Assembly: GCA_965223505.1 (NCBI GenBank)
Contig: CBDCWP010000039.1
Location: forward strand, 32,001-96,000
DNA: 64,000 nt
Source of the DNA: Planctomycetota bacterium
GTDB lineage: Bacteria > Planctomycetota > PLA2 > JAEUHO01
Direction: 5' to 3'
Position numbers and translations under genes: made by a program. The notes beneath the pieces were generated by a model that saw nothing but the letters and a program-made list of their open reading frames with translations, did no database searches and had not been told where the DNA came from. Shown here piece by piece: positions 20,483-64,000 of the stretch. How positions within the stretch are numbered: the first letter of the stretch is position 1; each line of letters opens with the position of its first letter.

Positions 20483-22195
20483 CTACCGGACGTAGCCCAG
20501 ACTCTCCAGCTTCACCAGGATTCGGTGGGCGGCGAGGTCGGGGCTCAGATTCTGCGTGTCGATGCGCATCTCCGGGTTCTCAGGCTCCTCGTAGGGATCG
20601 CTGATCCCGGTGAAGGCCTTGATCGTCCCGGCGCGCGCCTTCGCGTACAGGCCCTTGCGATCGCGGGCCTCGCAGACCTCCAGCGGCGTGGCGACGTGCA
20701 CCTCCACGAACCCGCCGCTCTGCTCGATGAGCTCTCGCACTGCGCGCCGCGTCTCGGCGTAGGGCGCAATGGGAGCGCAGATGGCCACGCCACCGTACTT
20801 CGTGATCTCCGAGGCCACGTACCCGATGCGCCGGATGTTGAGGTCCCGGTGCTCCTTGGAGAACCCGAGCTCGCTCGAGAGCTCCTTGCGCACGACGTCG
20901 CCGTCGAGCAACGTCACGCGGCGCCCGCCCAGCTCCAACAGCTTCACGAGCAACGCGTTCGCGATCGTCGACTTCCCGGAGCCGGAAAGGCCCGTGAAGA
21001 ACACGGTGAATCCTTGCGCGTGGCGTGCAGGTGTCTGCTTGCGGAGCTCCTCGACGATCTCCGGGTACGAGTACCACTCGGGGATCTCCACGCCGTCCTG
21101 AAGCCGCCGGCGGAACTCGGTGCCCGTGAGGTTCGCGATCTTCATGTCGGGCGTGGTTTCGTCGACCGGCATGTACTGGGCGCGGTCTTCGACGTAGACG
21201 AGCTGCTGGAACGGGACCATGCTGATGTCCAGCTCCTCCTCGTGCTGCGCGTACAGCTCCTGCGCCGCGTACGGCCCGTAGAACGGGTGTCCGTCGGGAT
21301 GCTTCCCCGGGCCGGCGTGATCACGCCCAACGATGAAGTGCGTGCATCCGTAGTTCTTCCGGATGATCGCGTGCCACAACGCCTCGCGCGGTCCCGCCAT
21401 TCGCATCGCGAGGTTCAGGAGGCTCAGGGTCGTGGTCTGCTCCGGATAGTGCTTCAGGATGTGCTCGTAGCAGCGAACGCGGGTGAAGTGATCGACGTCT
21501 CCCGGTTTCGTCATGCCGACCACGGGATGAATCAGCAGGTTCGCCTCGTTCTCGCGGGCGGCGCGGAACGTGATCTCACGGTGGGCGCCGTGCATCGGAT
21601 TGCGCGTTTGAAATGCGACGACGCGGCGCCAGCCGAGCTTGCGGAAGCGCCCGCGCATCTCGATGGGGGAGTCACGCAGGAGCCGGAAGTCGTAGTGCGT
21701 CGGCGGCTCGACGCCTTCGAGGCGGCCGCCGAGATAGACCGGATGGGTCCGCTGCATCAGCGTGGCCACGCCGGGATGCGCCGTATCCGCCGTTTCGTAC
21801 ACGGCTTCCGCCTCGCGCGCCTTGTCGGGCGTCCACCGGTCCTCGACCTTCATCGTCGCGACCAGAACGCCCTCGCGATCGCGAAGCGCGATGGTGTCGC
21901 CCTCCGAGACCTGCTCCGCGAACTCCGTGGTGACGTCCAGGTTGATCGGGATCGGCCAGATCACGCCCGACGCGAGTCGCATCGTCTCGAGCACGCTCTC
22001 GTAGTCGCTGCGCGTGAGGAAGCCCGTCAGCGGCGAGAACGCGCCGTTCAGGATCAGTTCGATGTCGCACAGCTGCCGCTCGGTGAGGTCCCACGACGCG
22101 AGGTCCTGCGCCTCGCGCTTGCGTGCTTCCGCTGCGCCCTCGGCGAGGTAGAGGTCGATCAGCGTCCCGCCGTGCGGCTCTTTGTAGGCGCCCAT
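20483..22195 (-). CDS. sat-cysC: Bifunctional sulfate adenylyltransferase / adenylylsulfate kinase (PAPS synthase)
   Basis: PHGG, LNGAFSPL.GF, FQTRNPMHxxH, MRMAGPREALWHA, VGRDHAG; kinase GLSGSGKST, LDGDVVR, FTGISDPYE. Confidence 0.95.
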   Translation of the reverse strand: MGAYKEPHGGTLIDLYLAEGAAEARKREAQDLASWDLTERQLCDIELILNGAFSPLTGFLTRSDYESVLETMRLASGVIWPIPINLDVTTEFAEQVSEGDTIALRDREGVLVATMKVEDRWTPDKAREAEAVYETADTAHPGVATLMQRTHPVYLGGRLEGVEPPTHYDFRLLRDSPIEMRGRFRKLGWRRVVAFQTRNPMHGAHREITFRAARENEANLLIHPVVGMTKPGDVDHFTRVRCYEHILKHYPEQTTTLSLLNLAMRMAGPREALWHAIIRKNYGCTHFIVGRDHAGPGKHPDGHPFYGPYAAQELYAQHEEELDISMVPFQQLVYVEDRAQYMPVDETTPDMKIANLTGTEFRRRLQDGVEIPEWYSYPEIVEELRKQTPARHAQGFTVFFTGLSGSGKSTIANALLVKLLELGGRRVTLLDGDVVRKELSSELGFSKEHRDLNIRRIGYVASEITKYGGVAICAPIAPYAETRRAVRELIEQSGGFVEVHVATPLEVCEARDRKGLYAKARAGTIKAFTGISDPYEEPENPEMRIDTQNLSPDLAAHRILVKLESLGYVR

Positions 22196-22687
22196 GCGTG
22201 CTTGTTCTCCGTCGTCGTGGGGAGCGGGATCGACCCGCGGAATCCGGTGGCTGTTGCGAGCACGCACACCTCTAGCACCGGTTTCTTGCGATCCGAGAGG
22301 AATGTGGAGCCGACCGCGTGACCCCGTCGCCTGCCCGCGCGATGTGGACGGCCGGGGGCCTCCGCGAGCCGCCCCGGCGCGCCGGTTCGACGAGGTCGAC
22401 CGGCTTCGCCCGCGGTGTGCAGTTTTTTGGACATCGCAGAGCCCCATTGTCTCGCGTTCCGGACGAGTGACGGCGTGCGAACAGCCACCCTACAGCGAAC
22501 GCCCATTTCGGCCCGCGGGCCCTGTTTGCTCGGCCTGGCAGCGTTCGCGCTGGCTGCGCGAAGTGCCGCTCGGCTAGACTCTGCGGTCGAGACCGGGGAA
22601 TTACGACAACGACGTGGCGCCGGGCTCGCTTCTTGCACCGGTGGTGGGAAATCCAACTGCATGGCCTGGAAGGGGAACAAAGCGGAA

Positions 22688-23665
22688 ATGCGTGAAGAAC
22701 GGTCCACGAGAGACCGCGCTCGCGCTGCCCCCTCGGATCTGGGGAGGCGCGCGGTCGTCCTGCGCTCCCTCGTCCTCCTGGCCGGCGGTTCGCACCAACG
22801 CAGCCTCGCCGCGCGCGCAGGCCGTTCCGTGCTCGACCTGCCGCTCTCGGCCTCGACGCGCCTCATGGACGTGTGGCTGGAGCGCATCCGCCAGCTGGCG
22901 GATCAAGTCGAGTGGTTCGGAGGCGACCTCGACGTGCGCATCTTGGCGGGGACGTCGAACGCCATGCCCACGCATCGCGCCGGGGAGTTCCCATGGCTTC
23001 GCGCTGCGCTCGATCCGAACGACCTGCGCGGAACCGCGGGCGCGTTGCGCGACCACTGCCGGCAGTTCCGCGACGACGATCACGTGCTCGTCGCTACCGC
23101 GTCGCAGTGTCCGGATCCGGGGTTGCTCGCGCGCTTCGTGTCTGCGGCCGATCTGTCGGCCGGCGTCTCGATCGCGGCCGGAGAGCGTCGCGCCCCGAGC
23201 GGGTGCATGCTCATTCGCTGTGCCGCGCTCCGCGAGATCCCGGAGATCGGGTTCATCGACCTCAAGGAGCAAGCGCTCGAGGAGATTGCGTACACGCACG
23301 GTGCACGCGTCGTCACGATTCGAGAGCCCGTCCCGCGCGTCATTCGAGGTCTCGAGAGCTACATCGATGCGGTGCGTTCCTGGCACCTGTGGGGCAGCCT
23401 GCGCGGCGTCACTGCGTCGCGGCCGTTCGACGAACATTGGCGGCCGGCGTTCTCCGTCGTCGAAGAGGGCGCGAGCGTGGGCAGCGACGTTCGGTTGCAC
23501 GACTCGGTCGTGCTCGCCGGCGGCGTCGTGGAGTCCGGCAGCACCCTCGTCCGTAGTGTCGTCGCGTCCGGCGGTGTCGTTCGGCGCAAGCGCAAGGTCT
23601 TCGAGAAGGTCGTCGCACCGCGGGACCCGCACGTCACGAGCAACGGCACGAAGGAGTCCGACTGA
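22688..23665 (+). CDS. Degenerate NDP-sugar nucleotidyltransferase-like protein with left-handed beta-helix tail
   Basis: LVLLAGG..RSVLDLPL, RGTAGALRD, GFIDLKEQAL, hexapeptide DSVVLAGGVVE..LVRSVV; start uncertain. Confidence 0.6.
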   Translation: MREERSTRDRARAAPSDLGRRAVVLRSLVLLAGGSHQRSLAARAGRSVLDLPLSASTRLMDVWLERIRQLADQVEWFGGDLDVRILAGTSNAMPTHRAGEFPWLRAALDPNDLRGTAGALRDHCRQFRDDDHVLVATASQCPDPGLLARFVSAADLSAGVSIAAGERRAPSGCMLIRCAALREIPEIGFIDLKEQALEEIAYTHGARVVTIREPVPRVIRGLESYIDAVRSWHLWGSLRGVTASRPFDEHWRPAFSVVEEGASVGSDVRLHDSVVLAGGVVESGSTLVRSVVASGGVVRRKRKVFEKVVAPRDPHVTSNGTKESD

Positions 23666-24519
23666 TGGACGCCCTCGGCCACAGAAAGGGCGCCTGGTCG
23701 CCCCTCGAGGCGTGTGGCGCATTGGTCCTCGTCGGCCTGGCCGTCGTGGTCACCGCGGGCGCGTGGAAAGACATGCTTCGCATGGCGCAGACCCCGGCCC
23801 AGGGGCACATCCTGCTCGTGCCGGCGGTTGCGGCATGGCTGTTCTGGGTCCGTCGCGGCAGGCTGCGCCGTTGCGCTCGGGACCAGCGCTGGATCGGGCC
23901 GGTCGTGGTCGTGGCCGGCTGGGCGGTGCACGTCGTGGGATACCGGGCCGGCATCGAGGCGTTCTGGCATCTCGGCGCCGTTGCCATCCCGGTGGGCTGC
24001 TTTCTCTCGTTCGCGGGCGCGCGCTACCTGGTTCGACTGCTCCCGGCGTTCCTGGTCCTGGCATTCCTGGTACCCATTCCCGGCGTCGTGCGGCATGAGC
24101 TCGTGTATCCGCTTCAGCGCACGATCACCGACCTGTCCAGCGGCCTGTTGAACCTGTTGGGCGTGAGCGGCGCGACCGCCACGGAGATCTTCGTTGCCGA
24201 AGCGCGCGGCGGCCTGCAGATCGTCTTCTCGCTGTTCGTCGTGTCCTACGCATTCGCGTACGGTCTGCCGATTCGCGAACCCGTGCGCGTCGTAATCCTC
24301 TGCCTGAGTCCGGTGCTCGCGGTGCTTTGCAATGTGATCCGGCTCGTGCCGAGCGTCTGGGCGTACGGCAACCTGTCGCCGGAGACCGGTCGGTTCATCT
24401 ACATCGCAGCGGGCTGGGTCGTGCTGCCGCTCGCGTTCTTCCTGCTCTTGGGGAGCTTCCGACTGCTGCGGTGGTCGTTCGTTCCCGTCTACCGCTTCAC
24501 CCTGGTCTACGGAAAGTAG
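23665..24519 (+). CDS. Exosortase-family membrane protein, predicted catalytically inactive
   Basis: HILLVP, FLVPIP..YPLQ, VAEARGGL (Cys position = Arg), NVIRL, FIYIAAGW (His position = Tyr). Confidence 0.8.
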   Translation: MDALGHRKGAWSPLEACGALVLVGLAVVVTAGAWKDMLRMAQTPAQGHILLVPAVAAWLFWVRRGRLRRCARDQRWIGPVVVVAGWAVHVVGYRAGIEAFWHLGAVAIPVGCFLSFAGARYLVRLLPAFLVLAFLVPIPGVVRHELVYPLQRTITDLSSGLLNLLGVSGATATEIFVAEARGGLQIVFSLFVVSYAFAYGLPIREPVRVVILCLSPVLAVLCNVIRLVPSVWAYGNLSPETGRFIYIAAGWVVLPLAFFLLLGSFRLLRWSFVPVYRFTLVYGK

Positions 24520-24525
24520 GAGGCG

Positions 24526-25215
24526 ATGCTCGACCGACAGCACCTGCACCTGCTTGCCGCGCCGTTGATCAGCCTGGTCTTGTTGGGTGCGATCTGGACG
24601 GAGCGCACCCTGTTCCGACTGCCCGCGGCCGACGCGGACGCCTATCATCGGCGCGTTCACGCACGTGCGCACGAGATTCCAGAGCACATCGGATCGTGGA
24701 AGGCGGCGCTCGCCAAGCCGCCCGCGCCCGCACGAACGCCGCTGGCGAACACCGTGGTTCAGATGCGCGAGCTCGAGCACGTGGGCACCCGCGAGTCGGC
24801 CCGTCTCCTGATCGTGCTCTGCCACGACGTGCGCGATCTGGAGGGGTACGACCCTTCCACCTGCTACCCGGCACACGGCTGGGCGTCGAGCGTGCGCAAC
24901 GAACGCACGATCACGATCGACGGGCGCGGCATCCCCGTGTCGGTGTACGAGTTCGAACGCGAGACCCCCACCGAAGGTCGATCGAGGATGACCGTCTACA
25001 GCTTCTTCGTTCGCCCTGACGGGAGGCTCGTATCCGGTTTTGGTGGTGTGGACGAAGCAGAGAGCGATCCCCGCTGGAGACCGTTTGGTGCGGGCCAGAT
25101 TCAGGTATTGCTCGACGCCTCGCTGAGTGAGAGCCGACGCGACGAGGTCGTACGGACCCTGGTCGCCGGCATCGAGCCGCTCATCGAGGCTGTGCGTCGA
25201 GGAGACGAGAGATGA
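24526..25215 (+). CDS. Exosortase-associated EpsI-like protein
   Basis: N-terminal TM; IPEHIGSW; YDPSTCYPAHGW; follows the exosortase-like gene. Confidence 0.75.
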   Translation: MLDRQHLHLLAAPLISLVLLGAIWTERTLFRLPAADADAYHRRVHARAHEIPEHIGSWKAALAKPPAPARTPLANTVVQMRELEHVGTRESARLLIVLCHDVRDLEGYDPSTCYPAHGWASSVRNERTITIDGRGIPVSVYEFERETPTEGRSRMTVYSFFVRPDGRLVSGFGGVDEAESDPRWRPFGAGQIQVLLDASLSESRRDEVVRTLVAGIEPLIEAVRRGDER

Positions 25216-27641
25216 CGAAACGACTCATATCAGGGGGGCCCGAGGACACGTGGGGGTTCGACGCCTCCGGTGCGGACGCCGCGGTCGACACCGAGGTGTC
25301 CGTGTGGCGCAAGCTCCACAACATCCTGCGTGGGCGCTACCACTGGGCGATCTTGCTCGCCTTGGTGGGCATGGCCGGCGGTTCCTACCTCGGTTGGGAG
25401 TCCCAGGTTCCCATCTACCGCGCCGAAGGGCTCGTCTACATCGCTCCCAGCATGCCGAGTCCCGACGACCCGGCCGGCACGAGCGTGCTGCCGATGTTCC
25501 AGGGCTTCGTAGCGTACCAACTGCACGTCATGGAGGGTTCGACCGCGACCCAGGCCGCGATGGAAACCGACGAGTGGAAAGGAACCGGGGAGGGCGTTTC
25601 CCCGGCCGCGATTCGCAAGTTCGTCCAGAGTCGCAAGCTCAAGCGCGGCCGCGGCGCTCCCTACATCCAGGTCGCGTTCGAGCACGAAGATCCCGAGACC
25701 GCGTTCGCAGGTCTGCAGGCGATCCTCACGTCGTACGAAAAGATCTTCGAAGAGCAGAACCGGGACATCGAACGCCTCGAGGACACGCAGAACAAGATCT
25801 CCGAGCTGAAGGCCCTCATCAAGGCCGGCAACGACGAGATCCTCACGCAGACGTCGATGTACGGCAGCACCGACGGATTGAAGAAGCGCGCCGAGCTCGC
25901 TGTCGATCGCGTCATGGAGATTCGCGCCGAGTTCGACCGGATCGACGCGGCGATTCACGACCGCGAGAATGACGTCGAGGTCGAACAGGATGACGAGGAC
26001 GCCCCGACGCCGATCGGGGAGATCGCGGTCAAGAGCCCGTGGCTCAACGACGCGCTCGGGCAGATCGAAGACCTCGAGATGGAAGAGGCTCGGCTCTCGG
26101 AGACGTTGCCGGACGGACATAGGCAGCTGCGCGCGTTGCGCGACCGCATCGCGATCCTGCAGAAGCGGATCGACCGGTACGTGAAGGACTGGAATCGGGT
26201 CTACAAGGTCCGAGAGGTCGGCACGTTGAGCCTGAAGGACCTCAAGGCGAGCCGCAAGAGCCTGGAGTCTCGTCTCAAGGCTCTCACCGAGGAAAGCCGC
26301 GTGCTCGGCAGCACGCTCATCACGGTGGGCCGCGTCGAGAACGCGCTCGCGGACAACGAGAACGACCTGCGCCGCATGGAACGGCTAGAGGAGTATCTCC
26401 GTAACCAACAGGTGGGCAAGGGTCGTCTGCGCATCGAAGAGCGGGGTCGGGTGCCGACCTCCCACTTCAAGGACGGGCGCATCTCGCACGCCGCCGCGGG
26501 AGGCATCGGCGGCGCCGGACTGGGCGTGTTCATCGTGTTGCTGCTCGGACTGCTGGACCGGCGCATTCGGAGCAGCGGCGGCCTGGACCGCGGCCTCTCG
26601 CGCCTGCGCCTGCTCGGCCTGATTCCGTTCCTTCCGCGCACGGGCGGCGATCCCGTCGATCGTGAGACCGCCAACATCTTCGTCCACCAGATTCGAACGC
26701 TGCTCCAGATCGGCAACACCAAGGAACGCGGCGCGTCCATTTGCGTGACGGGACCGGGCGTGGAGAGCGGCAAGACGACGCTCTCGAAGGCGCTCGCGCA
26801 CTCGTTCGCGCAGTCCGGCTGCCGGACGCTGGTCGTCGATGCCGACCTCACGGGCCGCGGCATGACGATCCGCGTCGCGCACATGCTCTGGAGCCACGCG
26901 CGAAACAGCGTCGCCAACGAGCCGTTCGACGCCGACGTGGAAACCACGTCGAGTCTCACGCCGCTGACGGTCGCCCAAACCGCCACGGAGCTTCCGACGG
27001 CCGAAGAGCTCGTCACGACGCTCAAGCGTGTTCTCGACGACCGGGGACTGCGCGGTGCGCGCGAGTCGGGTGTCGTGGACGACGTGTTCGCGCTCGCCGA
27101 CCTGCTGCATCCCGGCGAAGTTCGCGATCAGCTCGCATTGGAGCTCACGGCGTCCGTGGCCGTCGAGGGCGCGTTGCGCTTTGGTGCTCCGTCCGAGTGG
27201 ATTCCTCCGCGGGTCGACGAGCTGACGCCGGGCCGGGGCGAGTTCAACGGTCATCGGCTGGATCGGTACGTGTTTCCGACGGGCACCGACGGACTTCGTT
27301 TCCTGCCGCTGCGCGGGCTGGGACGCGGATCGTCCGTTTCCGTCCACACGGTCGAGCGCATCATGGAGCGTGTGCGCTCGGAGTTCGACGTGGTCTTGGT
27401 CGACACGGGCCCCGTACCGGGCACCGTCGAGACGTCCATGGTTGCCGCCACGGTGGATTCCGTCGTCGTCGTTCTCTCACCCGAAGACGATCGTCCGGAG
27501 GCGGAACGTGCGGTGGCCCATCTCGAGGACATCGGCGCGAACATCGCCGGGGTCGTCTTCAACCGCGCGGAGCAGCGCGAGGTGGAGAAGATGAGCACGA
27601 GTCAGAGCCTGTCTCCGGTTCGCCGGGGGCTGAAGGCATGA
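25212..27641 (+). CDS. Wzc/GumC-like polysaccharide co-polymerase with BY-kinase-like domain
   Basis: TM-coiled coil-TM; Walker A GPGVESGKTT, A' LVVDADL, B VVLVDTGP, GVVFNR. Confidence 0.85.
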   Translation: MTKRLISGGPEDTWGFDASGADAAVDTEVSVWRKLHNILRGRYHWAILLALVGMAGGSYLGWESQVPIYRAEGLVYIAPSMPSPDDPAGTSVLPMFQGFVAYQLHVMEGSTATQAAMETDEWKGTGEGVSPAAIRKFVQSRKLKRGRGAPYIQVAFEHEDPETAFAGLQAILTSYEKIFEEQNRDIERLEDTQNKISELKALIKAGNDEILTQTSMYGSTDGLKKRAELAVDRVMEIRAEFDRIDAAIHDRENDVEVEQDDEDAPTPIGEIAVKSPWLNDALGQIEDLEMEEARLSETLPDGHRQLRALRDRIAILQKRIDRYVKDWNRVYKVREVGTLSLKDLKASRKSLESRLKALTEESRVLGSTLITVGRVENALADNENDLRRMERLEEYLRNQQVGKGRLRIEERGRVPTSHFKDGRISHAAAGGIGGAGLGVFIVLLLGLLDRRIRSSGGLDRGLSRLRLLGLIPFLPRTGGDPVDRETANIFVHQIRTLLQIGNTKERGASICVTGPGVESGKTTLSKALAHSFAQSGCRTLVVDADLTGRGMTIRVAHMLWSHARNSVANEPFDADVETTSSLTPLTVAQTATELPTAEELVTTLKRVLDDRGLRGARESGVVDDVFALADLLHPGEVRDQLALELTASVAVEGALRFGAPSEWIPPRVDELTPGRGEFNGHRLDRYVFPTGTDGLRFLPLRGLGRGSSVSVHTVERIMERVRSEFDVVLVDTGPVPGTVETSMVAATVDSVVVVLSPEDDRPEAERAVAHLEDIGANIAGVVFNRAEQREVEKMSTSQSLSPVRRGLKA

Positions 27642-29065
27642 GCACCGCTTTGCCGACGCCGACGGCACAGCGCGAACGCGTGACGCCGCGAATCTGGGGG
27701 CTCTCGCCGCAGGAGCTGCACGAGCGGTTCTGGGCGTCGCGAGGCGTCCAGGTCGTCCAGCGCGGCTGCGAGTCCTCATTCGTTTCGTCGGCGGAGCTGT
27801 ACCTGCTCGTCGACCCAGATGCGCTGGTCGTCTTCGAGCTCCACGAGCTCGTCGACGTCCTGAGCTGGCTTGCTCCGCGTCTCCTCGTGGTGCGCTTGGC
27901 CGACGGCCATCACGACGGCTATCGCGAAGCCGTCGAGTGCGACGACGAGGGCCGCCTGCTTCGATTCGAGCGTCTCTACGACGGATCGCCCTCCGGGATC
28001 ACTCGCGTCGGGCTCACGTCGGATCGCGCGGTCGCTCGGCTTTGGCAAGAGGCCCCTAGCTCCCGCGACGGTTGGCGCAGCCTGCGCCGCGCCATTCCGA
28101 TCGACGATCGCGAGGCGCGCAGGATGCCCGGCCGTGTCTTCGACGCCCGACAGGACGAGCAGCTGGTCGCTCATCTCGAATGCCTGATGGACACGTGGAC
28201 GTTGCCGAAGGCGACCATCCCGCGTGCGCGTCGACTTCGCGGAATCTGGGCCGACCAGGAGGCCGAAGTCGCGCGCAGCGCTTCCTTCGTGGGACAGGCG
28301 TGGGTCGGCGCCGGTCGACGGGTCGAGCCGGGCGAGATCGTGGTCGGTCCCGCCATCCTTTGGGACGACCCCGAAGCGGGCCCCAACAGCGTTCCGATTC
28401 CGTGGGGGGAGCTGGAACCGCTGCCGCAGCGCGAGGGCCGAGGACGCGCCGCCGTGCCGTTCGTGCGACGTCCCGGGAAGCGCCTGTTCGACATTGCCTT
28501 CTCGCTCGTGGCGCTCGCGCTGACGCTTCCGCTCTACCCGTTCATCGCCCTCGCGATCCTCATCGAGGACGGCTGGCCGATCTTCTTCACGCACCGGCGC
28601 GAGACGGTCGGAGGGCGGCAATTCCCCTGCCTCAAGTTCCGTTCGATGCGCCGGGATGCCGAGAAGATCAAGGCGCAGCTCTCGGTGCAGAACCGCTCCG
28701 ACGGCCCGCAGTTCTACGTGAAGGACGATCCCCGATCGACACGCGTCGGCAAGTTCTTGCGCAAGACGCAGCTCGACGAGCTTCCGCAGTTCATCAACGT
28801 GCTCTTGGGGCACATGGCCGTCGTCGGACCGCGGCCGAGCCCGCGCGCCGAGAACCAGTACTGTCCGAGCTGGCGCGAGCGGCGTCTGAGTGTGCGCCCC
28901 GGTGTCACCGGCCTCTGGCAGGTCAGCCGAACACGGAAGAAGGGCCTCGATTTCCAGGAGTGGATCCGCTACGACCTCGAGTACGTCGAGCGGATGAACC
29001 TCTGGCTCGACCTCAAGATCATCTGGAAGACGATCGGGATCGTGTTCCGGCGCGGCGCGCGCTAG
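27638..29065 (+). CDS. Priming sugar (polyprenyl-phosphate) transferase with long N-terminal extension
   Basis: KRLFDI, LKFRSM, DDPR.TRVGKFLRKTQLDELPQFINVL.G.M..VGPRP, VRPGVTGLWQV. Confidence 0.92.
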   Translation: MSTALPTPTAQRERVTPRIWGLSPQELHERFWASRGVQVVQRGCESSFVSSAELYLLVDPDALVVFELHELVDVLSWLAPRLLVVRLADGHHDGYREAVECDDEGRLLRFERLYDGSPSGITRVGLTSDRAVARLWQEAPSSRDGWRSLRRAIPIDDREARRMPGRVFDARQDEQLVAHLECLMDTWTLPKATIPRARRLRGIWADQEAEVARSASFVGQAWVGAGRRVEPGEIVVGPAILWDDPEAGPNSVPIPWGELEPLPQREGRGRAAVPFVRRPGKRLFDIAFSLVALALTLPLYPFIALAILIEDGWPIFFTHRRETVGGRQFPCLKFRSMRRDAEKIKAQLSVQNRSDGPQFYVKDDPRSTRVGKFLRKTQLDELPQFINVLLGHMAVVGPRPSPRAENQYCPSWRERRLSVRPGVTGLWQVSRTRKKGLDFQEWIRYDLEYVERMNLWLDLKIIWKTIGIVFRRGAR

Positions 29066-52955: not shown

Positions 52956-53226
52956 GAGACCTCCGAGGCGCTCTCCGTGTTCGAGGCGGCCCGTCCCCAA
53001 GCTTGATGAGAGGACGGAGTAAGTCACGGGATTTCCTTCGATCGCGCTCCGTATCGACGCTCACACCGGGTATCGCCGGCGCCGAAGACTCGCTTCGAGT
53101 TCGCCGCAGTCGAACACGGGGCTATGCTTGCTTCGCCGCGCATGGATCAGTGGCAGGACCACTCGGCCCGAGCGATCCCGTGGGAACGGAGTGCAGTTCC
53201 CCCGCATCACGCCCGAGCTAGGAGAG

Positions 53227-55070: not shown

Positions 55071-55130
55071 GGGACGCGGATCGACGCCCCTACGATGCCG
55101 ACCCAACGACGCCGGGAATCGACACGACTC

Positions 55131-55889
55131 ATGCGCGAAGCGATCATCGACCTCGCCCGCCGCGCGGGCGCACTCATCTTGACGCACTACGACGCGGCGG
55201 CATCCACGCCGCTGGAGATCGTTCGGAAGGCGGATGACTCTCCGCTGACGATCGCCGATCGCGAGGCGAACGAGTCCATCGTGGCCGGGTTGCGATTCGT
55301 CGCCCCGGACGTGCCCGTCATCTCCGAGGAGGGCGCCGCGATCCCGTTCGAGGAGCGCCGCGGCTGGCAGCGGTTCTTTCTGGTGGACCCCTTGGACGGC
55401 ACCAAGGAGTTCATCAAGCGCAATGGCGAGTTCACCGTCAACATCGCTCTCGTCGAGGACGGGATTCCAACGCTCGGCGTCGTCTTCGCGCCTGCGCTGG
55501 GGGTGCTGTATGTCGGGGAGCGCGGCGCCGGCGCGTCCAAGATCGAGCCCGACGGCGAAGAGAGGCGCATCTACTCGGCAGCGCCCCCCGAAGGCCGACC
55601 GCTGCGCGTCGTGACGAGCCGCTCGCACGCGTCCGATGACGTGGCGGCCCTGCTCGGCGGCCGGGCAGTCGGCGAGATCGTGCCCGTGGGCAGCTCGCTC
55701 AAGCTGTGTTTCGTCGCAGAAGGCCGGGCCGACGTGTATCCACGTCGCGGTCCGACGATGGAGTGGGACGTGGCCGCGGGCGATGCCGTCTACCGCGCAT
55801 CCGGTCGCGACGGCGAGCGGTCGTCGCCGCTTCGATACAACAAGCCGTCGCTACGCAACGACGGCTTCCTGATCGGTCTCGATCCCTGA
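55131..55889 (+). CDS. cysQ: 3'(2'),5'-bisphosphate nucleotidase (PAP phosphatase)
   Basis: KADDSPLT.AD, SEE, LVDPLDGTKEFI..NGEFTVNIAL, SRSH, GSSLK, TMEWDVAAG. Confidence 0.93.
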   Translation: MREAIIDLARRAGALILTHYDAAASTPLEIVRKADDSPLTIADREANESIVAGLRFVAPDVPVISEEGAAIPFEERRGWQRFFLVDPLDGTKEFIKRNGEFTVNIALVEDGIPTLGVVFAPALGVLYVGERGAGASKIEPDGEERRIYSAAPPEGRPLRVVTSRSHASDDVAALLGGRAVGEIVPVGSSLKLCFVAEGRADVYPRRGPTMEWDVAAGDAVYRASGRDGERSSPLRYNKPSLRNDGFLIGLDP

Positions 55890-55956: not shown

Positions 55957-55980
55957 CCGAATGTGGATGGACCGACTGTC

Positions 55981-56706
55981 CTACGCGGACGCCTTGCGCT
56001 GGCGGCGGCGTGCCGCAGCGACGCAGAGTCCGCCGAGGCCGAACAGGGCAAGCGTGCCGGGCTCGGGCGTGACGTTGAGCGTCGAGACGTAGAAACGGAA
56101 GGAGTTGTCTTCCGCGGCGTCGGCGTTCGGGTTGAAGAACTCGAACGAGGTTCCGGAGAACCCGAAGAAGATCGTGCCCGCGGCGCTGTACTTGTGCCAG
56201 TCGCCGCCGTCGACGCTCAACCAGATCTCTGCGTCGTCGTCGAACGAGTCGTTGTGGTCGCCGTTCATGAAGGTGCCCCAGTTGACCGTCTTCTGAACGT
56301 CGAACGTGAGTGTGACACTCTGGTAGTCCCAGAGGTTGTCCATGTCGGCCGCGTTGGCGGCCGATGTATGCGCCGCGAGACCGCCGTCGTCCGGGTTGGT
56401 GTCGCCGTAGACGAAGATCTGCGTGCCGCCGCCACCGTCGGTGTCCGTTGCGTCGGCACGCTCGTGCGCCGTCGCGACGAAGTCGATGCCGTTGACGCTG
56501 AAGTCGACGTTGGCCGTGGGGCCACCGCCGCCGGCGGCCGTCTGCCACCAGTCTCCACCGCCCGTGCCGATGGTCGACGTCGTGTTGCCGGGGTTGGCAA
56601 TCAGGTCGGCGTTACCACCACCGGTAAAGTCGAGCGTCTCTGCCCACGCTACGTTCCCCGCGAACGCGAGCGCGACGCCCAGCGCCGCAAATACCAAATA
56701 CTTCAT
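55981..56706 (-). CDS. PEP-CTERM sorting-domain protein
   Basis: Signal peptide MKYLVFAALG..AWA; C-terminal TPEPGTLALFGLGGLCVAAARRRQRK. Confidence 0.93.
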   Translation of the reverse strand: MKYLVFAALGVALAFAGNVAWAETLDFTGGGNADLIANPGNTTSTIGTGGGDWWQTAAGGGGPTANVDFSVNGIDFVATAHERADATDTDGGGGTQIFVYGDTNPDDGGLAAHTSAANAADMDNLWDYQSVTLTFDVQKTVNWGTFMNGDHNDSFDDDAEIWLSVDGGDWHKYSAAGTIFFGFSGTSFEFFNPNADAAEDNSFRFYVSTLNVTPEPGTLALFGLGGLCVAAARRRQRKASA

Positions 56707-57120
56707 GGTCGAAAAGCCCTTCCACATTCCCCTGGTAGCCCGAATAGCACCCAGGTCACGCCTTTGCCGCCTCACACTGCGGCGGGCCGAAGTGTAGTCG
56801 TGCTTCGCGCCGTCGTTCAATAGGGCAGGACCCAAATTCCAAGGGCGCGCCGGACGACCTGCATGCTGGACGCATGAGAGATGACGTACGCGTGTCTACA
56901 CGATTGAACAAAAGGGGCCGGGCAACCTGCGCGCGGTCGGCGCCGTACGGTAGGGCTCTGTAAGCAGCCACCCGCTGGAAGCCATTTCATGCGGATCCCG
57001 CACGCGCTCCCCAGTTTCTGGCCCGGAGCCGTTGCGTTTGGCACGGCCGGTTGCGTGTGGTCGGGCGCGGCCGATGTGGCTTGCGAAGAACGTTTTGAAT
57101 CGTCCGTTTCGGCCCTGCCG

Positions 57121-58065
57121 CTAGTTCGAGTTCGCCGGCTCGCCGCGTCGTGCCTGCCAGACCGTCGCTTGGCGCTCGTCGAGATCCCTCGTCGCGCGCG
57201 CCTTGCCCTTGATCAAGCACTGTCGTTGGTACGCGCGCAGGAAGCGCCGGAAGGCCGGGTCGTCGTAGCGGTGCGTTTGCTTGAGCGCGCTTCGAACATA
57301 GCCCCACCACATTCCCGCACCGTTGATCAGGTACGGCGGCCGCGTCATGCGGAAGAGCGACACGGCCGTCATGTACACGAAACCGGTCCCCATGAAGTAC
57401 TGGCCGAATCCGTGCCGTAGCCGCCCCGTGAAGTACCCCTTCTGACTCGACCCCATCGCGCGCAAGTGAATGAAGCGCAGATCCGGATCGTCCCAGCTAC
57501 AGGCCCGCCACCCCAGCATGCGGCAGCGGTGGCAGTCGATGCCGTCCCACATCACCTCGCGTACGAACCCGCCGATCTCGCGGAACGCTTCGGTGCGGTA
57601 GAACTTCGTCATGCCGACGGAGGTCTCGTCGCCACACTTCTCGCTGATCAGCGTGCCGTCCTCGGCCGGGTAGTACGGCTTCCCGCTGCAGGTGGCGATC
57701 CGCGGATCCGCCTCCATGCGATTCATGAGCTCGGCGAAGTAGCCTGCAGGGAGATCAAGATCGAGATCCAGCTTGCAGACGTAGTCGTACGCGTCCTGGT
57801 CGATCGTCTCGAAGCCGGCGTAGAACGCCTCGACGACGCCCGGCCCGACGGCCCGATGCCCTCGATCCGTCCGCGTCAGCACGCGGATGAAGTCGTGCTT
57901 CTCCTCGTACTCGCGCAGGATGGCCGGCGTCTCGTCGGTGGATCCGTCGTCCACGATCAGCCAGAGTGCTGGCGCCTCCGTCTGTGCGACGACGGAGTCG
58001 AGCGTTCGCCGCGCGAACTCGGCCTCGTTGCGGCAGGGGGTGATGAGGGCGTAGCGCCGCGGCAT
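57121..58065 (-). CDS. Glycosyltransferase family 2
   Basis: LITPCRNE, VDDGSTD, KLDLD, WDGID. Confidence 0.88.
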   Translation of the reverse strand: MPRRYALITPCRNEAEFARRTLDSVVAQTEAPALWLIVDDGSTDETPAILREYEEKHDFIRVLTRTDRGHRAVGPGVVEAFYAGFETIDQDAYDYVCKLDLDLDLPAGYFAELMNRMEADPRIATCSGKPYYPAEDGTLISEKCGDETSVGMTKFYRTEAFREIGGFVREVMWDGIDCHRCRMLGWRACSWDDPDLRFIHLRAMGSSQKGYFTGRLRHGFGQYFMGTGFVYMTAVSLFRMTRPPYLINGAGMWWGYVRSALKQTHRYDDPAFRRFLRAYQRQCLIKGKARATRDLDERQATVWQARRGEPANSN

Positions 58066-58076
58066 GGGCTCCTCGT

Positions 58077-59153
58077 CTACTCGGATCTGCGGTTGGCGTA
58101 GTTCGTCTCGATCCAGCGGCGGTACTCGCCGCTTCGAACGGCGTCGACCCAACCCATGTTGGCGATGTACCACGCCACGGTTTCGTTCAAGCCCGACTCG
58201 AAGTCGTGCGCGGGCGACCAGCCGAGCTCCTGCTTGATCTTCGTGCAATCGATCGCATAGCGCTGATCGTGGCCCGGCCGGTCCTGCACCATCTCGATGA
58301 GGCCCCGCAGCACCGCCGGATCCTCACCGGTCTGCCGCGCGACGACGTCGCACAGGGTCTGCACGAGGTCCAGGTTCCGCCACTCGTTCTCGCCGCCGAC
58401 GTTCCAGGTCTCGCCCGTCCGTCCGCCGCTGATGATCGTCCAGAGCGCGGACGAGTGGTCGGCGACGTAGAGCCAGTCTCGCACGTTCGAGCCGTCGCCG
58501 TAGACGGGCAGCGGCTTCCGGTCGAGCATGTTCAGGATCATCAGGGGGATCAGCTTCTCGGGGAACTGGTACGGCCCGTAGTTGTTGGAGCAGTTCGAGA
58601 GCGTCGTCGGCAGCCCGTACGTGTGCGCGAAAGCGCGGACCAGGTGGTCGGATGAGGCTTTCGAAGCCGAGTACGGGCTGCGGGGGTCGTACGCCGTCGT
58701 CTCGTGGAAGTAGCCCGTCTCACCGAGGGATCCGAAGACCTCATCGGTGCTGACGTGATGGAACAACACGTCGGTGCGCTCCGCCCAGGACGCCCGGGCC
58801 GCTTCCAGCAAGTTGAACGTTCCGACGATGTTCGTCGTGATGAAATCGCCGGGCCCGACGATGGAGCGGTCGACGTGGCTCTCCGCAGCCAGGTGCACGA
58901 CCGTGTCGATGTCGTACTTCGCGAAGACGTCGCGGACCCGGTCGGCGTCCCGGATGTCGGCATGCTCGAAGACGTATCGGTCTCTGGCGTCGAGGTCGGC
59001 CAGGTTGGCCGGGTTGCCGGCGTACGTGAGCGCGTCCAGGTTGACGATGCGGCCGGCGAACGCGGTCTGCTCGCAGACGAACCGGATGAAGTTGCTACCG
59101 ATGAACCCTGCGCCGCCGGTGACCAGGATGTTCGTGAGTGCGCGCGCGCTCAT
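58077..59153 (-). CDS. rfbB: dTDP-glucose 4,6-dehydratase
   Basis: VTGGAGFIGSN, AAESHVDRSI, STDEV, PYSASKA, DRPGHD.RY. Confidence 0.96.
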   Translation of the reverse strand: MSARALTNILVTGGAGFIGSNFIRFVCEQTAFAGRIVNLDALTYAGNPANLADLDARDRYVFEHADIRDADRVRDVFAKYDIDTVVHLAAESHVDRSIVGPGDFITTNIVGTFNLLEAARASWAERTDVLFHHVSTDEVFGSLGETGYFHETTAYDPRSPYSASKASSDHLVRAFAHTYGLPTTLSNCSNNYGPYQFPEKLIPLMILNMLDRKPLPVYGDGSNVRDWLYVADHSSALWTIISGGRTGETWNVGGENEWRNLDLVQTLCDVVARQTGEDPAVLRGLIEMVQDRPGHDQRYAIDCTKIKQELGWSPAHDFESGLNETVAWYIANMGWVDAVRSGEYRRWIETNYANRRSE

Positions 59154-61481: not shown

Positions 61482-61700
61482 GGGGAAGCTGGCCCTCTCT
61501 CGGCGCAAACGGCGCGTGGTCGGCCCTCCGGGGCCGTTCGAGACGGCATCGTAGCCATCCGGTCGAATTCCTTGTGCGGTTTGCCGCCCAGCCTGGCTTA
61601 CAAGAGCGTGACCCCGTGACAACCGTGTGAAGGGCCCGGAGTCGAATTGACGCGGCCGGGCCGTACTGGTACGGGTTGCGTTCGGTTGGGAGGGACGTTC

Positions 61701-62786
61701 ATGTTTGTCAAGCGTCGTGCGGCCTTGGCCTGCCATCTGCTCGTGGGCCTGCTGGTCGTACTGCCGGCGTGTGCCCAGAAGTCGATCAGCCGCCCGAAGG
61801 CCGTGAAGAAGCTCCTTGTCGACTACACCGCGCCCGACGTCCACGACCCGGAGTTCACGCCGGTGCCCGAGGAAGAGCTCGCGGCGTTCGAGATGCCGGC
61901 TACGGAACCCTACCGGCTCGGCGTCGGCGACGTGGTGCTCGTTCGCATCATCTCGGCGGAGCCCGTGCCGGGGTTCGAAGGCGGCGTTCAGGCGCGCGTT
62001 GCCGAGGACGGCACCGTCCGGCTTCCGCGCGTCGGCAAGATCGACGCCCGCGACAAGACCGTGTTGGAGCTCGAAGACGCGCTGACCGAACCGTTTCAAA
62101 CCAAGGTCGTCAAAGACGCGCTGCCGAGCGTGACGGTCGCGGTCTTCGAGGCGCGCCGGTTCTTCGTGGTGGGGGAGGTCGGAACACCCGGCACGATGCC
62201 CGCCAACGGCACGACGACGCTCTTCGAGGCGTTGATCAGCGCGGGCGGTACGAATCTCGAGACCGCCGATCTCGAAGAGGCGTACGTGATCCGCGATCAC
62301 AAGCCGATTCCGTTCTCCATTCGCGACATCGTCATGCGCGGCCATCCCGCCGGACGGGTCGTCTTGCAGGAACACGACATCGTGTTCGTGCCGCACGTGA
62401 AGGACCGCACCGACTTCGTGTACGTGTTCGGCGAGGTCGGCAAGCAGGCCCGCGTGCCCATGGACCACAGTGGCCGACGCGGGACCGTCGGAAAGCTCAC
62501 GCTCGCTGCAGCGCTGGGCCAGGTCGGTGGGCTCAGCAATCGCGCCGACATCAACAGCATCACGATCTACCGCGGTGGTTGGCAGATGCCGAAGGAGTAC
62601 AAGATCGGCGTGCAGGACGTCTACCGCTACGGCACGCAGATCCACCTCCGTCCCGGCGACCGGATCGCGGTCGGCACGAGCAAGTCCGCGGCGTTCTCGG
62701 ACGCCATCGGACCGACGGTCGAGCTGCTGCGCGGCTCGTCTTCGGCGCTCTCCCTGGCGCTGAGCATCATCGCGCTGAACGACTAG
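61701..62786 (+). CDS. wza: Polysaccharide export lipoprotein (Wza/SLBB)
   Basis: Lipobox [27 protein letters not shown], two SLBB repeats. Confidence 0.85.
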
Positions 62787-62912
62787 TAGTTCCCGCGCCG
62801 CGCCGGTGCAACGGACGCTACCAAACTCCGAACCTGGCCCGAGCCTCGCAGACCCACCCTGCTGCCTCCCGGCGCGCGTTTTGCTAAATTGCCGCGCTAG
62901 GGAGAACTCGCG

Positions 62913-63764
62913 ATGCAAGGTGGTGATGCAGTGCAGACGGCCGATCAAGAAACGAAGACGCCGGCCCCCTCGGCCGACCCCAAGCCCCGCAGGGACAATG
63001 AGGTGCCCGAGCACTCGCCGTTCGACGTGACGCTCGACACCATCCTCCAGACGCTCGTCGAGCAGCAGCTTCCGGATCAGGCGAGCCAGTGCTTCGGCCG
63101 GATTCTCGGCGATTCGATGCCGCGCACGGCCGACGGAGACCGCTACGCCATTGCGGCCTCCGGCAAGTTCCACGGCTCGACGACGGGCGACCTGCTGGCG
63201 TACGCCAAGAAGAGCGAGCGTAGCGGCGCGTTGGTCATGGCCGAGCACGACGCCGAGCGCGTCCTGTACTTCTCGAAGGGTCGGCTGGTCGGTTCGACGT
63301 CCACGGTGCTGTTCGAGCGCTTGGGGCGATTGCTCTATCAAGCGGAGATCGTCAGCCACGAGGCGTCCGGGACGCTCGTCGACGCGGAGGAGGCGATGGG
63401 CGCACACGCCCTGCTGATGTGGATCTCGTCGGCGCATCTGCTCTGGGCCATCGAGCGTCGCGTGTGGGAGCTGGCCAACGCGGTTCACTTGATCAAGCGC
63501 GGCCACTTCGTCTTCATCGAGGGCGAGCCGAGCCTGGCGTGCCCCGCCGTGTCACTCGACCCCGTCGAGGTCGCGCAGGAAGGCGCACGCCGGCACGAGG
63601 AGCTGCGTCAGGGAACGGCCGACTCCAAGGAGATCTATCACCCCGCGGCGATGCGGGACGTTCCGCCGCCGATCGAGCGCGAGCTCCTGCCGATCGACAT
63701 CAGCGAAGAGACGCTCGGCGAGATCCTGAAGCGGATCCAGGAGTCCGACCCATTGCCCGCCTAG
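62913..63764 (+). CDS. DUF4388 (PatA_N-like) domain protein
   Basis: DLL......RSGAL......[10 protein letters not shown]......ERLGRLL; start uncertain. Confidence 0.65.
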
Positions 63765-64000
63765 CGGCCGCGCTCGCGCTCGTACCACTCGACCGTTCGG
63801 GCCAGGCCTTCTTCCAGCGACGTCCCGGCCTCGAATCCGATGCGCTCGCGGGCGCGTGTCGTGTCCAAGCACCGCCGCGGTTGGCCGTCGGGCATGTTCG
63901 CGTCCCACTGCAACTCGCCGCGAAAGCCCGTCGCCGTCCGAATGGTCTCGGCCAGATCACGGATGGAGACCTCGTGTCCCGACCCGAGGTTCATCGGGTC
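63761..64000 (-). CDS. fcl: GDP-L-fucose synthase, C-terminal part (truncated by window end)
   Basis: NLGSG.EVSIRDLAE.I....GF.G...WD...PDGQPRR.LD. Confidence 0.82.
   Translation of the reverse strand, partial: DPMNLGSGHEVSIRDLAETIRTATGFRGELQWDANMPDGQPRRCLDTTRARERIGFEAGTSLEEGLARTVEWYERERGR

Follow-up and report, generated by a model that had tools for sequence, protein, structure and literature searches.

The question raised by this locus is whether a planctomycete assembles an exopolysaccharide (EPS) and sulfates it with the products of one set of neighbouring genes. The window, by which we mean the whole stretch of 64,000 nucleotides that was analysed, spans positions 32,001 to 96,000 of contig CBDCWP010000039.1 (assembly GCA_965223505.1) of a Planctomycetota bacterium whose genome of 5.15 Mb lies in 44 contigs and is 92.5% complete. 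We propose that it holds a Wzx/Wzy-dependent EPS locus of about 45 kb with its own supply line for sulfation, a reading to which we give a probability of roughly 70%. Genes in this DNA (G+C 65-70%) were called through their third-position GC content and then scanned against Pfam and NCBIfam, and every gene class listed in an earlier note, which had described the window as a self-contained sulfated EPS and PEP-CTERM system, was found at or near the place where the note had put it. The left boundary of the locus falls at about 19.3-20.5 kb, upstream of which the genes belong to unrelated metabolism, and the right boundary lies about 1.7 kb beyond the end of the window, where fcl crosses the end and is followed by gmd and then by unrelated genes.

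The reading is carried in the first place by how the sulfation genes are distributed. The single ATP sulfurylase match in the genome, which is also its sole adenosine 5'-phosphosulfate (APS) kinase, the single above-cut-off match to CysQ (TIGR01331) and two of the three sulfotransferases detected all lie within one stretch of 35 kb, a clustering that is far beyond chance (by rough arithmetic (35/5155)^3, or about 3e-7). The four genes, the first of which encodes a synthase of 3'-phosphoadenosine 5'-phosphosulfate (PAPS), are:

20483..22447, minus strand: Sat-CysC PAPS synthase (NF004040, PF01747, PF01583, PF14306); true start probably near residue 85.
40730..41764, plus strand: sulfotransferase ST1 (PF13469, 30.1 bits, cut-off 27).
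53227..54225, plus strand: sulfotransferase ST2 (PF13469, 42 bits; PF00685, 37.2 bits, cut-off 22).
55095..55889, plus strand: CysQ 3'(2'),5'-bisphosphate nucleotidase (TIGR01331, 267.4 bits, cut-off 228.8).

Both ends of the donor cycle that the earlier note had claimed, a PAPS synthase and a phosphatase for the by-product 3'-phosphoadenosine 5'-phosphate (PAP), are therefore present above the family cut-offs. Sat-CysC scores 933.7 bits against NF004040 (cut-off 669), combines PUA_2, ATP sulfurylase and APS kinase domains, and conserves catalytic motifs of both enzymes, QTRNP and HGAH for the sulfurylase and the P-loop GLSGSGKS and DGD for the kinase; CysQ retains DPLDGT and WDVAAG, the motifs of its metal site. 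The absence of sulfur-reduction genes, reported before for the window, extends to the whole 92.5%-complete genome: neither the PAPS_reduct family, to which CysH and CysD belong, nor the NIR_SIR sulfite reductase family had a match there, the same searches being positive in 14/14 and 11/14 control genomes respectively. As neither CysH/CysD-type nor sulfite reductase genes were found, PAPS appears to be made for sulfation and not to feed assimilation, subject to the completeness of the assembly.

ST1 and ST2 both exceed their Pfam cut-offs and carry the motifs expected of enzymes that bind PAPS, in which a P-loop-like motif holds the 5'-phosphosulfate and an RHP...S motif the 3'-phosphate. In ST1 these read GKSGTK and RHPGGFVYS, with G22, S24, G25, R178, H179 and P180 invariant in an alignment of 12 sequences; in ST2 they read SRCGSTW and RHPAAVVWS, with R17, G19, R154, H155, P156 and S162 invariant among 41. 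The ST1 family is small (12 proteins at E<=0.001 among 8000 candidates scored, all 12 labelled PF13469), while ST2 has 189 relatives, the named ones being mostly cyanobacterial. Compared by sequence with solved structures, ST1 returned only a chance-level match to a P450 (E 0.076) and ST2 weak matches to sulfotransferases (best E 0.0019); a tblastn search for kinship with the xss sulfotransferases of pSYSM, run on a plasmid collection in which the presence of pSYSM is unconfirmed, returned no match to either at E<=1e-3. AlphaFold2 models built on the family alignments reached mean predicted local distance difference test (pLDDT) values of 87.4 for ST1 and 93.1 for ST2, and Foldseek comparison of these models with the Protein Data Bank (PDB) returned 37 and 108 matches at E<=0.001, all matches listed having the PAPS-binding sulfotransferase fold for ST1 and the sulfotransferase fold for ST2, at template modelling (TM) scores of 0.3-0.6. 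Pfam scores, invariant motifs and predicted folds together make ST1 and ST2 credible PAPS-dependent sulfotransferases. The best matches of both models are tyrosylprotein sulfotransferases (TM 0.38-0.60), so that the acceptor cannot be read from the fold; it is the context of glycosyltransferase genes that suggests a carbohydrate. No signal peptide was seen in the sequence of either protein, which fits action at the cytoplasmic face of the membrane, where PAPS is available.

The sulfotransferases lie among the genes of a polysaccharide assembly and export route with its sugar-nucleotide pathways:

25212..27641, plus strand: Wzc-like co-polymerase (TIGR01007, 74 bits, cut-off 108).
27650..29065, plus strand: priming polyprenyl-phosphate glycosyl-phosphotransferase, PGT (PF02397, 211 bits; TIGR03025, 257 against a cut-off of 295.55); start approximate.
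35618..36568, minus strand: glycosyltransferase GT2a (PF00535, 129 bits).
37754..39109, minus strand: Wzx flippase of the MOP family (PF13440, 134.6 bits; NF007773, 87.6, under the cut-off of 273).
39315..40727, plus strand: candidate Wzy-like polymerase, a multi-pass membrane protein (a protein-atlas lead).
41761..42789, plus strand: glycosyltransferase GT2b (PF00535, 39.9 bits).
42786..43952, plus strand: glycosyltransferase GT4a (PF13692, PF00534).
43949..45022, plus strand: glycosyltransferase GT2c (PF00535, 42 bits).
47130..48389, plus strand: glycosyltransferase GT4b, EpsE-like (NF041876, 230 bits, under the cut-off of 400).
48386..49282, plus strand: glycosyltransferase GT2d (PF00535, 94 bits).
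54051..55070, plus strand: GT26 glycosyltransferase of the WecG/TagA/CpsF family (PF03808, 194.5 bits); true start probably downstream of the ST2 stop.
57121..58248, minus strand: glycosyltransferase GT2e (PF00535, 63.9 bits).
60588-61481 (rmlA), 60028-60570 (rmlC), 59150-60187 (rmlD) and 58077-59396 (rmlB), minus strand: dTDP-L-rhamnose pathway.
61647..62786, plus strand: Wza-type outer-membrane polysaccharide export protein (PF02563, 53 bits, with SLBB domains).
63762..64000, minus strand: fcl, GDP-L-fucose synthase, C-terminal part (best match NF047922), continuing past the window.
L033:1703-2737, past the window end: gmd (TIGR01472, 539 bits, cut-off 415).

The flippase, the export protein, the priming transferase and the eight glycosyltransferases that had been claimed (five GT2, two GT4 and one GT26) are all borne out by Pfam and NCBIfam. 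The Wzy-like gene is likewise present, and its identity is a lead from the protein atlas: the product has six hydrophobic segments and no Pfam match even at E 0.1, and the nearest atlas clusters are named for the O-antigen ligase domain, one of them, at a score of 0.99, having Wzy_C on 78% of its members, so that we treat it as a candidate polymerase of the O-antigen-ligase/Wzy_C type. The claim of a Wzc holds in part. A Wzc-like co-polymerase with a Walker A motif is encoded, in which an insertion of about 160 residues splits the ATPase domain into a Walker A region (residues 510-550) and a remainder (713-789); with no tyrosine in the last 60 residues, and hence no C-terminal tyrosine cluster, and with TIGR01007 under its cut-off, it is unlikely to be a classical bacterial tyrosine kinase. 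The large tetratricopeptide repeat (TPR) protein encoded at 29072-32164 scores 58.7 bits against TIGR02917 (cut-off 312), which rules it out as PrsT.

On the side of precursors, the rfbACDB genes (rmlA, rmlC, rmlD and rmlB) and fcl were correctly called, and gmd, beyond the window, joins fcl. Three of the rml assignments stand above cut-off (TIGR01181, 463 bits; TIGR01214, 302; TIGR01221, 238), and RmlA was identified by eye in the translation, from a motif that we take to be characteristic of it. An open reading frame (ORF) at 60564-61619 on the plus strand has no family match and was set aside as an antisense shadow of rmlA. One gene start needed correction. GT4b had been begun at 46215, which would have made ORF 46215-48389 a single GT4 protein of 724 residues; third-position GC is 0.46-0.54 before 47115 and 0.86-0.92 after it, the start is placed at 47130, and a gene of the short-chain dehydrogenase/reductase (SDR) family at 46096-47133 had been overlooked. 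Directly after gmd, about 2 kb past the window end, stands a gene for a pyridoxal-phosphate (PLP) enzyme (L033:2906-3970, contig C39 of this genome) whose second-best match is the D-cysteate sulfo-lyase CuyA (310 bits, under cut-off); a role as cysteine synthase was rejected, the protein being a CuyA-like member of the D-cysteine desulfhydrase family. A SoxA/TsdA-type cytochrome c is encoded near it, so that sulfur chemistry adjoins the sulfation locus in position.

Between these genes, and around them, stand others that may modify the sugars, the repeat unit or the finished polymer, or regulate the locus:

22415..23665, plus strand: protein with a weak left-handed beta-helix C-terminus (PF25084, 22 bits, under cut-off); start uncertain.
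29072..32164, minus strand: large TPR protein (TPR Pfams).
33995..35605, plus strand: right-handed beta-helix protein, candidate polysaccharide lyase or epimerase (PF13229, 60.3 bits).
36736..37614, minus strand: S-adenosylmethionine (SAM)-dependent methyltransferase (PF13489, 82 bits).
45029..46099, plus strand: GFO/IDH/MocA oxidoreductase, sugar 3-dehydrogenase-like (PF01408, 87.8 bits).
46096..47133, plus strand: SDR-family sugar epimerase/reductase (from frame analysis; HpnA-like sugar epimerase, 106 bits, under cut-off).
49291..51564, minus strand: LtaS/OpgB-like membrane-anchored transferase of the alkaline-phosphatase superfamily (PF00884, 72.5 bits).
51480..52328, plus strand: protein with a protein-kinase-like fold (WaaP/Kdo-kinase-like), candidate sugar kinase (PF06293, 21.3 bits, at cut-off).
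52335..53027, minus strand: hexapeptide-repeat acetyltransferase AcT, a WbbJ/WcaF-like O-acetyltransferase (PF00132; NF007240, 76.8, under the cut-off of 243).
62913..63764, plus strand: DUF4388 protein, possible regulator (PF14332, 37.6 bits).

The best NCBIfam matches of the GFO/IDH/MocA protein are inositol 2-dehydrogenase and UDP-GlcNAc 3-dehydrogenase, both under cut-off. The product of 22415-23665 is possibly a protein like sugar-1-phosphate nucleotidyltransferases, since its best phmmer match in the PDB is mannose-1-phosphate guanylyltransferase alpha (E 0.092); a homologue of 34% identity adjoins an ST2 homologue in another locus of our comparison (L035). The WaaP-like kinase has weak PDB matches to RfaP and to Bud32-type kinases. 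The gene at 49291-51564 had been taken for a sulfatase; we reject the role of a desulfating enzyme for it. C/S-x-P-x-R is the formylglycine motif of PF00884 sulfatases, and the protein (757 residues, five N-terminal hydrophobic segments) does not contain it, its nearest sequence matches in the PDB being VP1736 (E 7e-16) and lipoteichoic acid synthase and primase, so that the gene is reread as encoding an LtaS/OpgB-like periplasmic phospho-transferase. Such a transferase in an EPS locus raises the thought that the glycan might also be phospho-substituted, in the manner of the glycerophosphate and sulfate on the capsule of Cobetia.

The remaining genes form an exosortase/PEP-CTERM module that flanks and interleaves with the glycan genes:

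19261..20406, plus strand: secreted protein, paralogue of the PEP-CTERM protein in its N-terminal domain; probable left edge of the locus.
23665..24519, plus strand: exosortase 2 (Xrt2), degenerate (PF09721, 111 bits).
24526..25215, plus strand: EpsI-like partner of exosortase 2 (EpsI2), a weak match (PF11984, 22.1 bits, cut-off 26.1).
32070..33011, minus strand: EpsI family protein, partner of exosortase 1 (EpsI1; TIGR02914, 71.6, cut-off 42.8; PF11984, 95.6 bits); true start probably Met83, at about 32765.
32762..33700, minus strand: exosortase 1 (Xrt1; PF09721, 203.6 bits).
55981..56835, minus strand: PEP-CTERM protein with signal peptide (PF07589, 28.5 bits, cut-off 20.7); true start probably at about 56706.

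Two exosortase/EpsI pairs had been claimed and both are there (23665-25215 and 32070-33700), of which only the Xrt1 pair looks catalytically competent. Xrt1 carries the motifs AEACSG, NGGRI and FHFFEG and keeps all three catalytic positions, the Cys, Arg and His that we take to be the catalytic triad; PF09721, the EpsI1 partner, the PEP-CTERM proteins and these residues together place it in the exosortase family, a combination that Xrt2 does not show. In Xrt2 the Cys is replaced by Arg (AEARGG; Cys in 27/28 family homologues) and the His by Tyr (His in 28/28), and eight residues are deleted; its orthologue in the nearest relative shows no such damage. Xrt2 is read as a pseudo-enzyme or a decaying gene. 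As judged from model scores the system is of no named, curated subtype: against the XrtA model TIGR03109 (cut-off 208) Xrt1 reaches 162.6 and Xrt2 74 bits, Xrt1 reaches 180 against the XrtD model (cut-off 400), and the companion models all stay under their cut-offs (PrsT 58.7/312, EpsB_2 165/393, pepcterm_export 70.9/180, pepcterm_TyrKin 30/230). The PEP-CTERM substrate that had been claimed for the locus is confirmed above cut-off and is one of six PEP-CTERM matches in the genome. Its paralogue at the opposite flank (29% identity over 186 residues, E 3e-11 by BLASTP) has no PEP-CTERM tail and bears at the same point a Cys-containing C-terminal extension of about 130 residues; neither the protein nor the extension matched a family in Pfam or NCBIfam. 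The proposed tie between the PEP-CTERM proteins and the glycan is thus upheld as far as co-location goes, a functional link being suggested by neighbourhood only.

We propose the following course for the pathway. In the cytoplasm Sat-CysC would convert sulfate and ATP to PAPS, while RmlABCD would provide dTDP-L-rhamnose and Gmd and Fcl GDP-L-fucose. PGT would prime the repeat unit and the eight glycosyltransferases extend it on undecaprenyl phosphate, after which the soluble ST1 and ST2 would place sulfate on this lipid-linked unit from the cytoplasmic side of the membrane, ST2 probably acting on or next to rhamnose, which is indicated for it by the rml neighbourhood of its homologues. The methyltransferase, the O-acetyltransferase and the WaaP-like kinase could decorate the unit further, and CysQ would turn the inhibitory by-product PAP into AMP. 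Wzx would then flip the unit, the Wzy-like protein polymerise it, and the Wzc-like co-polymerase and Wza export the chain. In the periplasm the LtaS-like transferase may add a phospho-substituent; the polymer may also be subject to trimming or epimerisation by the beta-helix enzyme. The gene identities, motifs, genome-wide counts and gene orders behind this scheme are observed, as are the folds of the models; what we infer from them is which substrates and acceptors are used, in which order the steps run and that the product is sulfated. Within these terms there is good support for a Wzx/Wzy-type polysaccharide that contains rhamnose, and probably fucose, and is sulfated through local PAPS with PAP cleared by CysQ, and the core of the earlier proposal, a sulfated rhamnose/fucose glycan, is well supported with it by gene content, motifs, folds and the missing assimilatory route.

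Whether the parts of the locus belong together was followed in two comparisons. In the first, profile and sequence searches covered 40 related genomes and the genome of the window, 41 in all. The sat-cysC query was matched in 19 of them, and in six of the same family (G001, G017, G004, G019, G016 and G024) the matches cover the two domains together, as those of a fused gene would. PF13469 was matched in 13/41 genomes, 12 of these also having a sat or cysC match, although the genomes are kin; the six-frame PF13469 search overlooks divergent sulfotransferases, ST1 having escaped it in its own genome. In four genomes (G019, G024, G037 and G010) sat or cysC lies less than 6 kb from a sulfotransferase. 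As to whether sat-cysC might be the sole assimilatory copy, and unlinked to sulfation in relatives, it is the only ATP sulfurylase, an assimilatory role is unsupported, and its counterparts in these four relatives have sulfotransferase neighbours. In the nearest relative, G001, sat-cysC is 84% identical and adjoins an epimerase and a 38% orthologue of DUF4388, about 12 kb from PGT (63%), EpsI2 (37%, next to Xrt2), Xrt2, GT26 (66%, likewise beside Xrt2) and a GT2. ST2 has no close orthologue in the related genomes (best identity 33%, in a genome of the same phylum), and neither an ST2 homologue nor a PF13469 match was found in G001 by this search, which is weak for divergent sulfotransferases. 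A separate observation concerns G004, where two ATP-sulfurylase systems stand side by side (L027, G004:C282:3250-7912), one TGA interrupting the sat-cysC match.

In the second comparison a pattern scan derived from the ST2 alignment, taking one genome per species, gave 62 loci, of which 36 with near-full-length ST2 homologues were compared by tblastn with the proteins of the cluster. At least one homologous polysaccharide gene lies within 10 kb in 20/36, and at least three of GT2b, GT2c, GT4b, GT2e and the Wzy-like gene in eight, which come from cyanobacteria, Desulfobacteraceae, Thioalkalivibrio, Arenicellales, Omnitrophota and Planctomycetota (by gene: GT4b beside 9/36 ST2 homologues, GT2b and GT2c each beside 8/36, the Wzy-like gene 6/36, GT2e 5/36). 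At least two rml genes stand right beside the ST2 homologue in 5/36 loci, cyanobacterial ones among them. The fullest counterpart, L034 in a metagenome-assembled genome (MAG) of Phycisphaerales (G041), runs Wzx, kinase, Wzy-like, ST1, GT2b, ST2, GT4a, GT2c, AcT, GFO, GT4b, GT2e, and is syntenic with the present cluster at 30-69% identity, the kinase being a 30% homologue of the WaaP-like protein described above. GT2e reaches 49-69% in L034, L035, L047, L058 and L043 (Planctomycetota, Desulfobacteraceae, Arenicellales and Pleurocapsales) and is far more conserved than its neighbours, which hints at horizontal spread of the sulfated-glycan core. Within 10 kb of the ST2 homologues there was no match to Wzc or Wza, and none to an exosortase, in any of the 36 loci. 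The comparison across genomes thus shows a recurrence of the sulfotransferase/glycosyltransferase core, which crosses phyla, and not of the PAPS or exosortase genes, which do not accompany it there. On this gene-order evidence the sulfated-repeat-unit core is a widely shared and probably mobile module, and it is peculiar to this genome, among the loci compared, that the core stands beside CysQ, the PAPS supply and an exosortase/export module.

Several observations weigh against the proposal of one dedicated sulfated-EPS system. Neither sat-cysC nor CysQ lies within 10 kb of an ST2 homologue in any of the 36 loci; in G041, the genome with the syntenic core, sat and cysC are separate genes on contig C15, not within 10 kb of that core; and in G004 sat-cysC adjoins genes like cysD and cysN. 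The structures that match ST1 and ST2 best are sulfotransferases for tyrosylprotein and for small molecules; heparan-sulfate 3-O-sulfotransferases rank lower and appear for ST1 only. The absence of CysH and sulfite reductase is unprovable at 92.5% assembly completeness. No sulfate transporter is among the Pfam results for the cluster, and in the genome SulP has no match and CysT none that reaches cut-off, a DASS-family protein on another contig (213 bits) being the sole candidate. The third sulfotransferase, whose PF13469 score of 136 bits is the strongest in the genome, lies on a separate contig (G000:C40:96565-100293; L032:8588-12309) with a fatty-acid desaturase on one side and an OlsE-like fatty-acid hydroxylase on the other, a PEP-CTERM protein being about 9 kb off; it may act on a lipid and make a sulfated lipid, and as it needs the same PAPS the supply is not exclusive to the EPS locus. 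The sulfated product itself is predicted from genes, the host being an uncultured MAG. The description of the system as self-contained was for these reasons an overstatement, since there is no in-cluster sulfate transporter, PAPS is shared with a third sulfotransferase, and a single exosortase pair looks competent.

The alternative that survives best takes the window as a mosaic of at least two abutting modules, an exosortase/export module (sat-cysC, Xrt2/EpsI2, the Wzc-like protein, PGT, the TPR protein and Xrt1/EpsI1, with GT26 and DUF4388 further along) and a horizontally mobile sulfated repeat-unit module that runs from Wzx to GT2e and includes both sulfotransferases, with PAPS as a genome-wide service to three sulfotransferases. 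It overlaps our reading, as a sulfated glycan would still be made, although the idea of a single self-contained system would then fall, and we hold it as a tentative possibility of some weight. The gene group of G001 speaks for it, where sat-cysC, DUF4388, PGT, EpsI2, Xrt2 and GT26 are kept together and neither ST2 nor PF13469 was found, as does L034, where the core stands with no match to an exosortase, PGT, Wzc, Wza, sat-cysC or CysQ within 10 kb; so do the recurrence of core genes in Desulfobacteraceae, Arenicellales, Thioalkalivibrio and cyanobacteria, with GT2e at up to 64-69% identity, and the position of the third sulfotransferase on a contig of its own. The negative in G001 is weakened, however, by the failure of the same search to find ST1 in its own genome; CysQ is part of the glycan module, where it comes next in line behind ST2 and GT26; and the core lacks a priming transferase, Wzc and Wza and so depends on the export genes beside it.

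A more far-reaching version of our own reading is that the lineage has dropped the reductive assimilation of sulfate and activates sulfate for no purpose other than surface decoration. PEP-CTERM proteins that Xrt1 has processed would carry or anchor the sulfated glycan with its rhamnose and fucose, in a bacterial analogue of a sulfated proteoglycan matrix, and the dead Xrt2 would persist as a non-enzymatic scaffold or regulator; this we would give an outside chance. That ST1, ST2 or both sulfate protein instead, at tyrosines or at glycans on the PEP-CTERM protein or its paralogue, is very unlikely in our judgement. The preference of Foldseek for tyrosylprotein sulfotransferases and the presence of two paralogous secreted proteins at the flanks, one of them PEP-CTERM, would fit it, but the TM scores are modest and small-molecule and, for ST1, carbohydrate sulfotransferases match nearly equally. 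Both genes, moreover, stand amid Wzy-like and glycosyltransferase genes, in an order kept in L034 with no PEP-CTERM or exosortase match nearby, the cyanobacterial ST2 homologues adjoin rml operons, and neither enzyme has a visible signal peptide although the PEP-CTERM protein is exported. Finally, that sat-cysC and cysQ are ordinary assimilatory genes near the EPS locus by chance is hardly credible, for although Sat-CysC fusions of the NF004040 type occur in many bacteria, the gene adjoins cysD/cysN-like genes in G004 and the assembly is incomplete at 92.5%, the PAPS/APS reductase and sulfite reductase were not found by searches that succeed in control genomes, CysQ has GT26 on one side and the PEP-CTERM gene on the other, and four related genomes have sat or cysC close to sulfotransferases.

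The proposed sulfated-EPS locus has counterparts among published clusters. As described in the report on its capsule (PMC11766843), the gammaproteobacterium Cobetia marina KMM 1449 has a cluster in which a sulfotransferase and a sulfate permease accompany cysNC, cysD and cysQ, and makes a polymer of Rha2S, established by nuclear magnetic resonance (NMR), and Man6PGro. It shares with the present locus the PAPS genes, cysQ, a sulfotransferase, an rml operon and a GDP-sugar pathway, and its product joins sulfated rhamnose to a glycerophosphate substituent, for which the LtaS-like transferase of the planctomycete may be a counterpart. It differs in using CysD and CysN/C where we find a Sat-CysC fusion, in having a sulfate permease within the cluster, and in relying on a KpsMT ABC transporter and 3-deoxy-D-manno-octulosonic acid (Kdo) priming in place of Wzx, Wzy and Wza; no exosortase or PEP-CTERM genes are among those described, and its product is chemically verified, whereas ours is predicted from genes. 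The cluster of Vibrio sp. KMM 8419 holds, according to its description (PMC11641403), cysNDC and three sulfotransferases, and that report calls PAPS genes and sulfotransferases within a polysaccharide cluster a hallmark of sulfated polysaccharide synthesis. Here too PAPS-synthesis genes (second copies in Vibrio) and sulfotransferases accompany an rml operon in a polysaccharide cluster, although the Vibrio system, from another phylum, follows the ABC-transporter pathway with cysNDC, has a separate assimilatory copy of the PAPS genes, and is described with no cysQ and no exosortase. The hallmark seen in Cobetia and Vibrio is found in the present locus as sat-cysC, ST1, ST2, glycosyltransferases, Wzx, the Wzy-like gene and Wza within 20483-64000, and the statement that few sulfated EPS pathways are defined is dated now that capsule clusters with PAPS genes and CysQ in place have been published (PMC11766843, PMC11641403).

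In its assembly machinery the locus resembles the synechan (xss) cluster of Synechocystis sp. PCC 6803, reported to comprise two sulfotransferases, eight glycosyltransferases and a Wzx/Wzy/polysaccharide co-polymerase (PCP) set (PMC8205485). The likeness extends to two sulfotransferases of different subfamilies and a rhamnose-containing product; the terms PAPS and cysQ occur nowhere in the main text of that report, so no PAPS genes are described for xss; the cluster is under the control of XssQ/R/S, and the gene for outer-membrane export (OPX) is located outside it. The wps-1 cluster of the actinomycete Actinoplanes missouriensis (PMC13390465) likewise combines Wzx/Wzy with two sulfotransferases that belong to different families, and with its SAM methyltransferase and protein-kinase-like gene it has the set of modifiers found in the present core; the description mentions no PAPS genes and no exosortase, and in both cases the sulfated product is predicted. 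Two strains of Pontiella, in the class Kiritimatiellae, are reported to make sulfated exopolymers, one of them having a putative sulfotransferase cluster (PMC7356697). Our literature search, with supplementary files outside its scope, met no described link between exosortases and sulfation and no described sulfated-EPS cluster from a planctomycete. The exosortase side resembles the XrtA-type EPS systems that Haft and colleagues are said to have described, in which an exosortase with EpsI and PEP-CTERM proteins reportedly stands near Wza, a co-polymerase and a priming transferase; unlike those, the present locus matches no XrtA-system model at cut-off, and its second exosortase is degenerate.

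The present locus therefore joins a known type of sulfated-polysaccharide cluster whose design principle is already published, and its value is incremental. What it adds first is a phylum: Planctomycetota would be counted among the likely producers of sulfated polysaccharides, such a cluster being previously undescribed there. Bacteria of the PVC group are known mainly as degraders of sulfated glycans, according to the introduction of one report (PMC7356697), and bacterial sulfated polysaccharides were still called essentially confined to cyanobacteria in passages published from 2021 to 2026 (PMC8205485, PMC13390465). It also offers an unusually complete list of parts, namely a PAPS synthase, CysQ, two sulfotransferases, Wzx, Wzy and Wza and the sugar-nucleotide pathways, that could be transferred to a production host. 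Sulfated polysaccharides are valued biomaterials and matter for the cycling of carbon and metals in the sea. The locus further brings to light a conserved sulfotransferase/glycosyltransferase core common to several phyla, and the missing assimilatory pathway would make this planctomycete a clear-cut example of PAPS production for sulfation alone.

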